In this document: positions 2,044 to 52,208 of the stretch, one piece after another | Layout: each line of letters starts with the position of its first letter | How positions within the stretch are numbered: the first letter of the stretch is position 1 | Assembly: GCA_027592325.1 (NCBI GenBank) | Contig: JAQCKO010000006.1 | Coordinates: 1 to 59,038 of the forward strand | DNA length: 59,038 nt | Direction: 5' to 3' | From: a bacterium | Lineage (GTDB): Bacteria > Patescibacteriota > Patescibacteriia > UBA9934 | Notes under the pieces: model-generated | Seen by the model: the letters and a program-made list of their open reading frames with translations, nothing else | Databases searched by the model: none | Told to the model about the DNA's origin: nothing | Program-made: the position numbers and the translations under genes

Positions 2044-2078
2044 AAAAGAAAACCCCCGCCCAGCAAGCCGGACGGGGT
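2044..2078 (-). terminator. Intrinsic terminator 35 nt upstream of queA
   Basis: ACCCCGUCCGG-CUUG-CUGGGCGGGGGU then UUUCUUUU on the minus strand. Confidence 0.7.
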
Positions 2079-2300
2079 AAGAGGCAGAGGCAGTATCTGC
2101 TAATTGTCGTCGTCGAGTACATCGTCATGCACTCGACGACTTCAAACCGGCTATCAAGGCACTCGCTACTGCCGCGAGTGTTACATCCTTGACAGTGCCC
2201 CCCGTTTAATGCGCTAAAGCGCTGGGGAGCTTATGCCGTCGAGCAATACGGATTATTAGGTCCGCACCACTCCCTTTTATTCAGCTTGCGAACGAACTGA
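2044..2300 (-). ncRNA. Candidate ~255-nt structured RNA / queA leader
   Basis: Promoter, five or more hairpins whose G.U pairs all fit the minus strand, then a terminator; no long ORF. Confidence 0.55.
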
Positions 2301-2306
2301 AAAAAC

Positions 2307-2335
2307 ATATTACAACAAAATGTGCATATTGTCAA
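2307..2335 (-). promoter_or_regulatory. Sigma70-type promoter
   Basis: TTGACA-17 nt-TAATAT on the minus strand. Confidence 0.7.
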
Positions 2336-2357: not shown

Positions 2358-3182
2358 CTAAGGCGCAGTAAATAGCACTCTTTTTGCCCCATTCGCTGGG
2401 TCGCCATTATTCCAGTCCCCGATAGCATTCATGAGGACATCAAAATCGTAAACAAAATCCGCACCGCGGCGCGTGCCGGGATCGTGTGTGATAAATCCTT
2501 CTTCTGAATACCCTTTCACAACAAGCATATGATAAACAGGTCCAAGCCCGCTAAAAAACGGATTTTCAAGCTTTTGACCGGCGGCAGGGATGATTACTGG
2601 ACGCCCTTCCACAATTTGCGCTTTAATTTGATCAATCGTTGGATTCTCAACAACAACACCTGTAAAGCCAAAGTATAGATCGATCAGCTCAGCTGTTTGC
2701 TCAACTGTTGTATCTTCATATTCACCAAAAAGATCAAGTTGAAAATCGACGGACTCCAGAATCTTTGCGTCAACAGCATCGGCACTCAGCACTCCTACAG
2801 CTGCACCCGCATAGTACTCCGCGACCATTAGTGCAGAGGCTTCTTCGCACGCCTCTTGATACGGCAACTCCCAGTTCGCATGTGGCGCTTGCGAGGTAAA
2901 TGGCACGGCAAGATTGAACGCTGATGGTTGTGAAGGTTTATCCTTCATGATCAATTCGTCAAGGACTTCATCATCTCCTCGCAATGACGTGTCCAATTCG
3001 ATATCCGTCTCCTCGATTCGTAGATTTATATCATTCGTAGAATCGTCACGCTCCGCAGTGATCTCGGCAAAACTCGTCTCTTCAACATCAATATCAAGCA
3101 TCTTTGGTTCCCGATCAAAACCATACCAAACTGCCCCTGCTACAAACAATATTCCCAATAGTGTCAATCCTATCTTGCGCAT
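2358..3182 (-). CDS. C39-like peptidase family protein with N-terminal membrane anchor
   Basis: LAVPFTSQAP...EACEEAS (catalytic Cys), YHMLVVKGY, ITHDPG pattern. Confidence 0.75.
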   Translation of the reverse strand: MRKIGLTLLGILFVAGAVWYGFDREPKMLDIDVEETSFAEITAERDDSTNDINLRIEETDIELDTSLRGDDEVLDELIMKDKPSQPSAFNLAVPFTSQAPHANWELPYQEACEEASALMVAEYYAGAAVGVLSADAVDAKILESVDFQLDLFGEYEDTTVEQTAELIDLYFGFTGVVVENPTIDQIKAQIVEGRPVIIPAAGQKLENPFFSGLGPVYHMLVVKGYSEEGFITHDPGTRRGADFVYDFDVLMNAIGDWNNGDPANGAKRVLFTAP

Positions 3183-5489: not shown

Positions 5490-6209
5490 TTACAGTGTGT
5501 CAGGTAGTGAGAAATCTCTCAAGGAGAAATCCCCGATTGTACAAAGCGGCTCTGGAATTAACGAGAATCTCGCAGCTGTTTTTAACTGATAGTTCTCTTC
5601 TTTAAGCCGAATGGTATGTGAGATGGAAGAAAATTCTGCACGATCAGTAACGAAGTACTCTCCCGAGCATCCCCCTTGATATTCACTATTCGGAACAATG
5701 ACCGGATACCCTTCTGCAAGAAATAGTTCGGACCATATATCTACCCCGGCTGCATGACGAGGCATACTGGCGATAAGTGCGCTATGATCTGACGCGAATA
5801 TTGGTGCCGCTTCTGGGATTGCCGGCGCTATCATTATGGGGGAAATAAGATCAAGTGTGAGTGATGAAATATTCTCCTGAGCTAAAAACCGCCAAACCCG
5901 CAAGAATGGATCGAACTGATACAGTGCCATATCTTCCGTTGCGTTGAGTAATTCCCATTGAATTTCAATGCGCAGATCACGATCAGCATATTCCCCTTCC
6001 GGCAAAAGTGTGTACACACGAATTTCCTGTTCTGTCTTCTGCTCAATATGCAGAGGAACATCGATGCTTTGAACTCCCGATAACTCAATCACCAAGTCAT
6101 CTGAGCGCACTTCAGTATATTCTGGTTCTGGAGTAACAAGCAGAACAACCCCAAAAAAAAGAAGGACCACAGCAATAAGAAGACCGATAGACGAACGATC
6201 AATTTTCAT
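5490..6209 (-). CDS. Membrane-anchored hypothetical protein
   Basis: 239-aa ORF with N-terminal TM helix, in line with neighbouring genes. Confidence 0.7.
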   Translation of the reverse strand: MKIDRSSIGLLIAVVLLFFGVVLLVTPEPEYTEVRSDDLVIELSGVQSIDVPLHIEQKTEQEIRVYTLLPEGEYADRDLRIEIQWELLNATEDMALYQFDPFLRVWRFLAQENISSLTLDLISPIMIAPAIPEAAPIFASDHSALIASMPRHAAGVDIWSELFLAEGYPVIVPNSEYQGGCSGEYFVTDRAEFSSISHTIRLKEENYQLKTAARFSLIPEPLCTIGDFSLRDFSLPDTL

Positions 6210-6227: not shown

Positions 6228-6349
6228 AAAAACCCCTTCTTAGCCGAAGGGGCGACGAACGTCTGTAGAAAGCCCTAGATTGCACGCTCAGTGCCGGAGA
6301 AGCAACACTAGTAGACATCTGCTCGTGCAATCTAGGGCTAAATGTACGA
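6228..6349 (-). ncRNA. Candidate ~120-nt sRNA or attenuator leader
   Basis: Promoter TTGACA(6379-6384)-17-TAGGGT(6356-6361); perfect 16-bp stem 6271-6286/6324-6339; terminator CCCCUUC/GAAGGGG+U5 at 6228-6252. Confidence 0.45.
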
Positions 6350-6387
6350 AAAACAACCCTATCATCTATCACTTATTCTGTCAAATG

Positions 6388-6610
6388 AAAAACCCCTGCC
6401 TATCGTACCGATAGACAGGGGTTGATTCGCGCGGGATTTTCACCGCCGTGGGCACTATAGAGGGTGCCCGCGTTCCGCGTTCACGGAAAAAGTGGTCAGA
6501 ACTGATGCTCATATTTAGCGCCGACCATAGTGGCCGTATGTTTATCAGTTCTGACCAGAACGAACAGAGGAGCAGCTCACCGTATTGCTACTGTTCTGTC
6601 AAGTCTCTTG
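6388..6610 (-). ncRNA. Candidate ~220-nt structured RNA downstream of the MetK-like gene
   Basis: 14-bp perfect stem 6493-6506/6544-6557, GUA-GCAA-UAC tetraloop, several more hairpins, terminator at 6388-6423. Confidence 0.4.
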
Positions 6611-19996: not shown

Positions 19997-20780
19997 GATA
20001 TTTGAGGTGATATTTTAGCGCACTATGGATTTGAATCCATGTCATTTTATTGCGAATTTGGCGCCAAAAACCACCATCCGCCGTCGCGCGACGATGGTAG
20101 TGTATCATGGTTGATTCGGGATAATACATAACTGCCTTTCCAGATAACCAGGTACGACGACAAAGGTCATTATCTTCGTAATACAAGAAAAAGCGTTCAT
20201 CAAATCCTTTTAGTTCTGCAAGCAGTTCCGCACGCGCAAAAAGCGCTGCACCTATGAGTGAATCGACAGGCATCTCTTCGTCGTGACTCATTTCCGTCAT
20301 TAAATAATCATCAACGGTTTTCTTTGCAAACGAAAGTCTGCCAAGCGGCGTTCTCCGGTAGACAGGAATAAGCAAATTCGGCTGCCTATAACAGGAATAC
20401 TGAAGTGTGCCGTCTGGATTCATCAATTTTGGCCCACAGATACCTACTTCAGGGTGTGCTTCCATATACTCCACCATTGCTTCGAGTGAACCTGGCTGCA
20501 CAATGATATCTGGGTTAAAGACGAGGATATAACGACCATTTGCCTTTTCGATGCCTTTATTCATTCCCCCACCAAAACCCAGATTACGCTCTTGTGGCAA
20601 ATAAATCAGCCCATCATATGGCGTTAATACATCCATCAGACCATCAGTCGGATTATTATCAATCAGAATGATCTCGTACGAGATTTTTGGTGCTGCCCTG
20701 CGAATTGATCGGATCGTCTGGCGAATCTGATGCTTTTCAAAGGTATGAACAATAAGAATAGAAACATCAACGGTCGACAT
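19932..20780 (-). CDS. Glycosyltransferase family 2 (rhamnosyltransferase-like)
   Basis: NLGFGGGMN, VFNPDI, FDERFFLYYEDNDLC. Confidence 0.92.
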   Translation of the reverse strand: MSTVDVSILIVHTFEKHQIRQTIRSIRRAAPKISYEIILIDNNPTDGLMDVLTPYDGLIYLPQERNLGFGGGMNKGIEKANGRYILVFNPDIIVQPGSLEAMVEYMEAHPEVGICGPKLMNPDGTLQYSCYRQPNLLIPVYRRTPLGRLSFAKKTVDDYLMTEMSHDEEMPVDSLIGAALFARAELLAELKGFDERFFLYYEDNDLCRRTWLSGKAVMYYPESTMIHYHRRATADGGFWRQIRNKMTWIQIHSALKYHLKYRGEPNPRRQFAHANRIEQSLR

Positions 20781-26380: not shown

Positions 26381-26419
26381 GCATGCATTATATCATCTAT
26401 TGTCGCTTCATTGTAAGTG

Positions 26420-26448
26420 TAGACAAAACGGTGACTTCACAGTAAGAT
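26420..26448 (+). promoter_or_regulatory. Sigma70-type promoter
   Basis: TAGACA-17-TAAGAT. Confidence 0.5.
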
Positions 26449-26476
26449 CTCCCTGAATCTCACACTCGGAGTAGAC

Positions 26477-26650
26477 GTGACGATCGACCTATCAGAGTTT
26501 CTTCACATTGCGACGGGGATCACTATTGCGGTCCCAATGTTCATCGCAGGGTTTTGGGGATCAATGCACCCGATCATGTGGTGCATCATTGCTCCAATTC
26601 CTGTTAGCCTAATTGCCTACGCACTCAGCGCTCTAATCGCTGGTAAGTAG
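26477..26650 (+). CDS. 57-aa two-TM small membrane protein
   Basis: GGAG SD, GTG start, MTIDLSEFLHIATGITIAVPMFIAGFWGSMHPIMWCIIAPIPVSLIAYALSALIAGK; hairpin ACGCACCC/GGGTGCGT at 26656-26677. Missed by the ORF track. Confidence 0.65.
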   Translation: MTIDLSEFLHIATGITIAVPMFIAGFWGSMHPIMWCIIAPIPVSLIAYALSALIAGK

Positions 26651-26920
26651 GCCTCACGCACCCTCGCATGGGTGCGTTCGCGTTTTAAGCGAATAATTTT
26701 CCCATGGCCTGAGAATGACCTTCATGTGCACTCCATCTGATCAGCCATTCTTACTTTATTCTTATCAAAAATGAGCGCCCTCAACCAATAATTCAACGTG
26801 TTAGTATTCCCCACAAACGGTTAAGGCTTTACCCACCTCTACAATCGAGCTCCCGGACTACCCATTCCTTGCTAAATTCAATATAATTTGCTAATATTGC
26901 TGACTGAAGGGGGAGTTTTC

Positions 26921-27097
26921 ATGAATCGATTCGACCAATTCATCGTCGCTACCATGATTCTGGTGGCAGTCGTTTGTAGCGGATTCATCATCTTCGGAGA
27001 TTTCAACGCAAAGAATATGACATCCTATATCATATTCTGCTTCAGCGGGGCCAGCTCGATTGGCCTCGCGAGCATCATTGTACTCTCGCCGCGGTAG
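26921..27097 (+). CDS. 58-aa two-TM small membrane protein
   Basis: GGGGGAG SD, ATG 26921, two hydrophobic segments; hairpin ACGCGCCCC/GGGGCGCGT downstream. Confidence 0.65.
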   Translation: MNRFDQFIVATMILVAVVCSGFIIFGDFNAKNMTSYIIFCFSGASSIGLASIIVLSPR

Positions 27098-27198
27098 AAG
27101 GAGCCGCGTCCGCAGCCGAGCTTCGCCTCACGCGCCCCGACATTCAGGGGCGCGTTTGCATTTATGAAAAAGAAAACCGACCAAATGGTCGAATTCCA

Positions 27199-49497: not shown

Positions 49498-49588
49498 AGG
49501 GTTGGTTTCTTAGATCAGATAATTCCCGGAGATATTACAATAATGGGGTAAAATTGTCAAGATAGCGCGAACTTTCGGCTGTTAGCAA

Positions 49589-51651: not shown

Positions 51652-51665
51652 ATAGCGTCAGTTTA

Positions 51666-52208
51666 TCATGATTCATCAAGTGTCCCTTTACTTTTCATGA
51701 TCTCAAGGGCCTTTGTGAGTATTGGTCGCATATCTTTGTATGAAGATTTCTCCACGACATCTTCTACAGGGGTCCACTTCACCTCATAAATACGCTCTCC
51801 TTTTTCCTGCAACTTTGGGCGCTTTACACGTGCGTAATAGGGCGCTTCAAAAAGATAGTAGTAAATATACTTGTGAATGAGTCGTCCCTTAAATACGAAT
51901 CTGTCACGAAACCAAATATCAATATGATCAAGAGAGGCTTTCATGCGCAAATTACGAAGCCCAACTTCTTCAGAAACTTCTCTCCGTGCAGCATTTTCAT
52001 ATGATTCTCCACGACGCACATGCCCTTTTGGAAAGGTCCATTTCCCATATGAATCCTTTACCATGGCAAAATACAGCCCGCTCCTTGTGCGCTTATATAC
52101 AATCCCACCCGCCGATACCTCAACGCGGGGACGCTCTTGCTTACGCCGATTAATTCCCTGTCTTGAGGAAATTGAGCGCCGCGTCGATTTGCGGGGTGTT
52201 CTCTGCAT
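51666..52208 (-). CDS. NUDIX hydrolase with Arg-rich N-terminus
   Basis: WTFPKGHV...ARREVSEEVG Nudix box. Confidence 0.9.
   Translation of the reverse strand: MQRTPRKSTRRSISSRQGINRRKQERPRVEVSAGGIVYKRTRSGLYFAMVKDSYGKWTFPKGHVRRGESYENAARREVSEEVGLRNLRMKASLDHIDIWFRDRFVFKGRLIHKYIYYYLFEAPYYARVKRPKLQEKGERIYEVKWTPVEDVVEKSSYKDMRPILTKALEIMKSKGTLDES

Follow-up and report, generated by a model that had tools for sequence, protein, structure and literature searches.

The window, by which we mean the whole 59,038-nt stretch of DNA analysed here, derives from an uncultured groundwater CPR bacterium, and, judging from its queA protein, the organism belongs with the Magasanikbacteria-like Patescibacteria. The queA gene, encoding tRNA preQ1(34) S-adenosylmethionine ribosyltransferase-isomerase (351 aa, PF02547), lies on the minus strand at 958–2010, and its upstream neighbour on the same strand, at 2358–3182, encodes a Peptidase_C39_2-like protein of 274 aa (C39-like). 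Within the intergenic region between the two genes, which is 314–345 nt in length, the minus-strand segment 2335–2044 was found to comprise a promoter, a structured body and an intrinsic terminator, all on the same strand as the neighbouring genes. We refer to this segment as the element. Its GC content is ~0.54, versus ~0.45 for the genome. The stop codon of the C39-like gene is 22 nt ahead of the element's -35 box, with no terminator between that gene and the element, and at the other end 33 nt separate the end of the terminator U-tract from the queA ATG at 2010. A small protein gene was also considered and dropped, as the five ORFs inside the element encode just 21–41 aa and none is credible.

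The element opens with a sigma-70-type promoter at 2307–2335 (TTGACA at 2335–2330 and TAATAT at 2312–2307, separated by 17 nt), and the predicted transcript is ~254 nt long, starting near 2299 (2300–2298) and extending to the U-tract at ~2046. All features that follow are on the minus strand. The first hairpin, P1, is at 2282–2299 (CAGUU-CGUUCGCA-AGCUG). In the minimum free energy (MFE) fold it is followed by P2 at 2241–2272, a 12-bp helix (GAGUGGUGCGGA/UCCGUAUUGCUC, loop CCUAAUAA) that extends the pairing GUGCGGA/UCCGUAU and contains four G-U pairs. A helix formed by GCUCCCC and GGGGGGC then closes around the mini-hairpin GCGC-UUUA-GCGC (2197–2230), and its G-run is a candidate antiterminator strand. 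P3, at 2151–2195, is a two-tier hairpin (CUGUCAAGG/CCUUGAUAG) with the bulge AUGUAA, the inner helix CACUCGC/GCGAGUG and the loop GGCAGUA, and P4, at 2109–2140, is a near-perfect 14-bp hairpin, GUCGUCGAGUGCAU-GACG-AUGUACUCGACGAC. A small hairpin, GCAGA/UCUGC, and a single-stranded CU-rich linker, CCUCUUA, occupy 2078–2100 and lead to the intrinsic terminator at 2044–2077 (CCCCGUCCGG-CUUG-CUGGGCGGGG, a 10-bp stem with eight GC pairs, then the U-tract UUUUCUUUU). The promoter, hairpins and terminator that an earlier note on this DNA had listed were thus all present on the minus strand at the positions given there.

Promoter and strand-specific fold

The promoter scores 10/12 and was the sole promoter-like site detected by a pattern scan of 1800–2600; the scan detected no such site between the element's terminator and queA. 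Across the window there are six occurrences of the pattern TTGACA-N16-18-TANNNT, compared to an expectation of 1.64, and none of 100 shuffles reached six. One of the other five sites, at 49560–49532 on the minus strand (TTGACAATTTTACCCCATTATTGTAATAT), is the promoter of rpmA (L27, 49216–49497). The element promoter (TTGACAATATGCACATTTTGTTGTAATAT) and the rpmA promoter have in common the -35 region TTGACAAT, the 17-nt length of the spacer and TTGTAATAT. This near-identity indicates that the promoter of the element is of the type used in this organism for a highly expressed gene. As a by-product, the two promoters provide a working consensus for strong promoters of the organism, TTGACAAT-N-TTGTAATAT.

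Folding of the minus-strand RNA (262 nt) gave an MFE of −120.4 kcal/mol, compared to −83.8 ± 4.8 kcal/mol for dinucleotide shuffles (z −7.65), and none of 200 shuffles folded as well. The plus strand had an MFE of −93.9 kcal/mol (z −4.16), which is 26.5 kcal/mol worse than that of the minus strand. The earlier note had remarked that the wobble pairs fit the minus strand, and this is borne out by the MFE fold, in which 11 of the 85 pairs are G-U, four of them in the P2 helix. The presence of these 11 pairs, together with the weaker fold of the plus strand, indicates that the structure exists as a minus-strand RNA and is not a DNA palindrome. A GC-corrected 240-nt sliding fold across the whole 59-kb window had the element as its top minus-strand outlier (−5.3 sd), and the element was outside the top 25 on the plus strand.

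In the ensemble of predicted structures, the terminator had pair probabilities of 0.97–0.996. Alternative pairings are also available to the RNA. In folds of the nascent chain, transcripts of 78–92 nt were predicted to pair GGGAG (2274–2270) with CUCCC, and this pairing was displaced by GCUCCCC:GGGGGGC once the G-run emerged at ~104 nt. The earlier note had drawn GGGAG/CUCCC as a helix enclosing GUGCGGA/UCCGUAU; the outer pairing is that of the predicted nascent fold, and the full RNA pairs differently at its MFE. The same note had pointed out that ACGGGG and AGCCGG could each pair with the 5′ arm of the terminator. Both are indeed complementary to it, with forced folds of ACGGGG:CCCCGU (the G-run with the terminator arm) and AGCCGG:CCGGCU lying 6.6 and 12.9 kcal/mol above the MFE, respectively. 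These competing pairings form the skeleton of a possible conditional attenuator in the modelled folds.

Related sequences and the C39–queA junction

Searches for known RNA families support the view of the earlier note that the element matches none of them. A scan of the whole window against Rfam 15 at gathering thresholds returned two tRNAs only. When the region 1950–2450 was searched at E ≤ 10, only noise was obtained, the best hit being NsiR1, which scored 16.9 bits on the terminator (gathering score, 39). At neither setting did cmscan of that region return a match to preQ1 I–III, SAM-class or T-box models. There was likewise no Rfam match to 6S, SRP, RNase P, tmRNA, ribozyme or large-ncRNA models, and ARAGORN found no tRNA or tmRNA in the element.

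To place the element among relatives, the queA protein was searched against 5.8 billion protein clusters. Only one close protein was found (P0003, 84%), with another, P0004, belonging to the same species and the remainder at ≤57%. The contig of P0003 (L040/L042) has an identical gene order, i.e., MetK-like, a 239-aa gene, cyclophilin, RNase_H_2-like, a 109-aa gene, C39-like and queA. Its C39–queA spacer is 78 nt long and has just a short AU-rich hairpin inside, and neither nhmmer nor blastn found a trace of the element on this 11-kb contig. The only other copy comes from a second assembly of the same species (L041), which has 3 SNPs in ~1300 comparable bases. The two known copies of the element are 99% identical and differ only at 2292 (T>A) and 2287 (A>G), both at the apex of P1. 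With these changes, the apex becomes CG-AUCG-CG and the stem grows to 8 bp.

The earlier note had suggested that the queA upstream regions of relatives be examined for covariation. These were collected, and contained no element-like sequence either in the close relative or in 39 further queA loci (nhmmer and blastn), where the gap to the nearest upstream ORF was ≤166 nt; the wider set of 39+4 loci likewise showed no similarity upstream of queA. A covariance model built from a 134-nt core (R1) found only itself over 243 kb, leaving a single independent sequence of the element. A recurrent terminator ahead of queA was considered and dropped, since one was present just ahead of the gene in only 3 of 42 loci from relatives. 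Two more distant, syntenic relatives have quite different sequences at the junction. In L043 (1698–2471) an opposite-strand gene for a 257-aa secreted-looking protein lies between C39 and queA. In L045 (1176–1875) the junction contains a gene for a 151-aa multi-pass membrane protein and a 244-nt unrelated spacer, which is moderately structured (z −2.65 overall, −4.0 for a 141-nt part) and closes with CAUGCA-GAAA-UGCAUG and then a GAU7 tail. The C39–queA junction is a hot spot of gene turnover, and its content differs in every relative sampled. Because of this turnover the ancestral state cannot be fixed.

The variable junction raises the question of whether the element is a non-functional or selfish palindrome-rich insert, recently acquired or locally generated, or the remnant of a mobile element or of turnover at a recombination hot spot, in which promoter-like and terminator-like sequences are present by chance. 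Its presence in one species only, the different inserts that occupy this junction in L043 and L045, and the near-perfect stems, which suggest youth, are all consistent with this explanation. So is a second lineage-specific hairpin insert in the window, at 6228–6384, and a palindrome-rich segment of this kind could yield similar fold statistics. The element resembles REP, MITE and BOX repeats in being a hairpin-rich intergenic insert in one lineage with an empty site in the relative. It differs from them in being single-copy, in its strand-asymmetric fold, in having a full promoter and terminator, and in having no terminal inverted repeats or target duplications. A match to a repeat family, which the earlier note had named as a possible refutation, was looked for and not found in the window, the run contigs, phages, plasmids or viral contigs. 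There was a single copy in the window, and the fully read contig sets of the source study's three runs contained no second contig with ≥80% likeness and no variants. Phage and plasmid collections searched with blastn in distant mode gave no match, and three scans of viral contigs with other segments of the element gave none. One metagenome scan with the 20-mer TTGATAGCCGGTTTGAAGTC gave two matches, both of which were chance occurrences inside unrelated ORFs. A look-up of sequencing runs found the element sequence in two DNA runs of one study only, and in no RNA run. Derivation from the genes present at this junction in L043 and L045 was rejected, since tblastn found no similarity between those genes and the element. 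In addition, the strand asymmetry (11 G-U pairs, 26.5 kcal/mol) argues for selection at the RNA level, and the promoter matches that of a ribosomal protein gene almost base for base. Overall, we consider such an insert to be a possible but rather unlikely explanation.

A proposed structured-RNA gene ahead of queA

Our preferred interpretation, to which we assign a probability of roughly 0.5, is that the element is a self-contained gene, specific to this species, whose product is a structured RNA (an orphan sRNA), and that it has an additional role in insulating or attenuating queA. The strong housekeeping-type promoter would drive a ~254-nt transcript from ~2299 that would fold into five stable hairpins and end at an efficient intrinsic terminator at ~2046. 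The same terminator would also stop transcription from the upstream operon, and queA would be reached only by read-through, because there is no promoter between the terminator and the gene. In this way the element would function as a constitutive attenuator or insulator. The unpaired CU-rich linker ahead of the terminator would be the most plausible surface for interactions in trans. Transcription of the unit, activity of its terminator and a function of the RNA in trans are what we infer from the DNA sequence. Most probably, the product would be a stable, structured RNA that stands alone.

Several features support this interpretation. The promoter and terminator are in the correct order and orientation, with a body between them that has no credible ORF, and the helices are long and near-perfect, unlike those of aptamers. 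The two changes in L041 keep and extend P1. The absence of the element from the 84%-identical, syntenic relative indicates that queA does not need it. What counts against a stand-alone gene is that the element lies only 33 nt ahead of a same-strand gene with no promoter of its own, as would be expected of a cis-acting leader. In common with stand-alone bacterial sRNA genes, which have a sigma-70 promoter and a Rho-independent terminator, the element has a promoter, a structured body, a pyrimidine-rich single strand and a terminator with a U-tract, and it is intergenic, ORF-less and lineage-restricted. Unlike most base-pairing sRNAs it is larger (~254 nt), more structured (five stable hairpins) and located directly before a promoter-less gene. 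It also resembles the orphan ncRNA candidates of the GC-IGR pipeline (PMC8632094) and of a set of 224 candidate motifs (PMC5737381) in having a long intergenic region (314–345 nt), above-mean GC content and a strong predicted structure. However, those candidates have many representatives and covariation, and the element has a single representative. The GC-IGR pipeline designates motifs as “Unnamed”, for want of evidence, when they have three or fewer representatives, and by those rules the element would be filed as an “Unnamed IGR” (PMC8632094).

The location of the element suggests a second possibility, namely that it is a conditional cis-acting leader of queA, either riboswitch-like or a factor-dependent attenuator. 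In such a leader, either GGGAG (2274–2270) or the G-run (2204–2199) would capture CUCCCC (2229–2224). If GGGAG:CUCCC were held, the free ACGGGG would pair with the terminator arm CCCCGU and allow read-through into queA; otherwise GCUCCCC:GGGGGGC would form and the terminator would fire. The balance between the two would be shifted by a ligand such as preQ1, SAM, a tRNA or a protein. The same-strand position just upstream of queA, with no promoter-like site intervening, is in keeping with this proposal, as are the predicted nascent folds, in which GGGAG:CUCCC forms first and CUCCCC:GGGGGG after it, and the complementarity of ACGGGG to CCCCGU, with a forced fold just 6.6 kcal/mol over the MFE. 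The hairpin-plus-terminator insert at 6228–6384, which lies between a conserved promoter and a gene, suggests that terminator-like hairpins within leaders are tolerated in the genome. Like the terminating riboswitches and leaders (preQ1-I/II/III, SAM, T-box), the element is in a 5′-leader position, has its terminator immediately ahead of the gene and can form mutually exclusive pairings, and queA is likewise a gene of the queuosine pathway, whose product uses SAM and tRNA.

Nevertheless, we regard a conditional leader as possible but not probable. Neither the sole close relative nor any of the 42 other queA loci examined has the element, and unlike preQ1, SAM and T-box leaders the element has no match to a known aptamer model, even at E ≤ 10, and no conserved aptamer. 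Its helices are long, regular and near-perfect, with no demonstrable conserved irregular junction. Known preQ1 riboswitches control queCDEF, queT and yhhQ (PMC11625349); queA is not among these genes, and the gene downstream of the element therefore falls outside the listed targets. The terminator is predicted to be formed >97% of the time, and the low-energy antiterminator fold also needs extra 5′–3′ pairing. New riboswitches are recognised by an aptamer that is conserved with covariation upstream of functionally related genes in several species, which the element does not have, and by the criteria of the field a motif with no more than three representatives is unclassifiable (PMC8632094). 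The earlier note had considered two possibilities, an independent ncRNA and a new queA riboswitch or attenuator. Our data favour the ncRNA, based on the promoter, the strong terminator and the strand-specific fold, and speak against the riboswitch, based on the lack of conservation in relatives, which the note itself had named as a refutation, and of any aptamer match. In this one species the element may still act as a simple or conditional attenuator, because queA has no recognisable promoter downstream of the terminator.

We also considered leader-peptide attenuation, in which queuosine status would be sensed through the speed of the ribosome on a short frame, which would set whether the terminator forms. 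The candidate is a 10-codon frame within P4, at 2132–2100 on the minus strand (GUG-CAU-GAC-GAU-GUA-CUC-GAC-GAC-GAC-AAU-UAG, HDDVLDDDN). Seven of the nine codons after the start are NAY codons (His/Asp/Asn), which are read by Q34 tRNAs, and the frame is upstream of the terminator of a gene whose protein belongs to the queuosine pathway. However, the 14-bp helix of P4 encloses the frame entirely, GUG start included, and the GAC repeats simply complement the GUC repeats of the opposite arm. The 5′ arm of the terminator follows ~22 nt after the stop codon and ~30 nt after the last GAC. No alternative pairing joins P4 to the terminator. The frame is missing in relatives and has no ribosome-binding signal, though the organism rarely uses one (3/43 ORFs). 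Attenuation by this peptide is, in our estimation, very unlikely.

A further proposal, also of low probability, is that the element arose recently in this species as a conditional attenuator, linking queA expression to the state of the queuosine pathway or of its GUN-anticodon tRNAs by means of the competing GGGAG/CUCCCC/GGGGGG/CCCCGU helices. In the modelled structure, P3 and P4, which are rich in NAY codons and GUN, would sense a tRNA, a metabolite or a translating ribosome through their surface. If this is correct, queA would gain its first known regulatory RNA, and a complex leader would have arisen within one CPR species.

If the structured-RNA gene that we favour is transcribed as predicted, it would be one more lineage-restricted, highly structured RNA in a Magasanikbacteria-like CPR genome. 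Taken by itself, with its one representative, the element is an orphan that cannot be classified, and it should not be counted as a new class of queA riboswitch, because the queA of the nearest relative does without it.

Other features of the window

During our studies on the queA-upstream element, we noted a structured block behind the MetK-like gene, at 6388–6610 on the minus strand, that is conserved in the 84% relative (L042 5715–5990). The two versions have in common the promoter CTTGACAGAA, the segment CTCCTCTGTTCGTT, a terminator and a long stem (GGTCAGAACTGA/TCAGTTCTGACC), and between these parts they differ by lineage-specific indels. The block has no Rfam match. Unlike the unit upstream of queA, its sequence looks like that of a vertically inherited ncRNA.

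Next to it, at 6228–6384 on the minus strand, is a unit with a 16-bp hairpin and a terminator that is missing from the relative (L042 ~6000–6076). The promoter upstream of this unit, TTGACAGA, is conserved, and in L042 it leads straight into the 239-aa gene. The unit is a second lineage-specific structured insert, here between a promoter and its gene, and it is within 4 kb of the element upstream of queA.

Shine-Dalgarno-like motifs were found within 20 nt of the first ATG in only 3 of 43 long ORFs, based on a crude ORF call with uncurated starts. This suggests that initiation in this genome is largely SD-independent. The missing Shine-Dalgarno sequence at queA was dropped as a regulatory clue because so few of the long ORFs have one. 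Other long apparent intergenic regions (498–818 nt, also from a crude ORF call) are present in the window at 26381–27198, 19997–20766 and 51652–52149.
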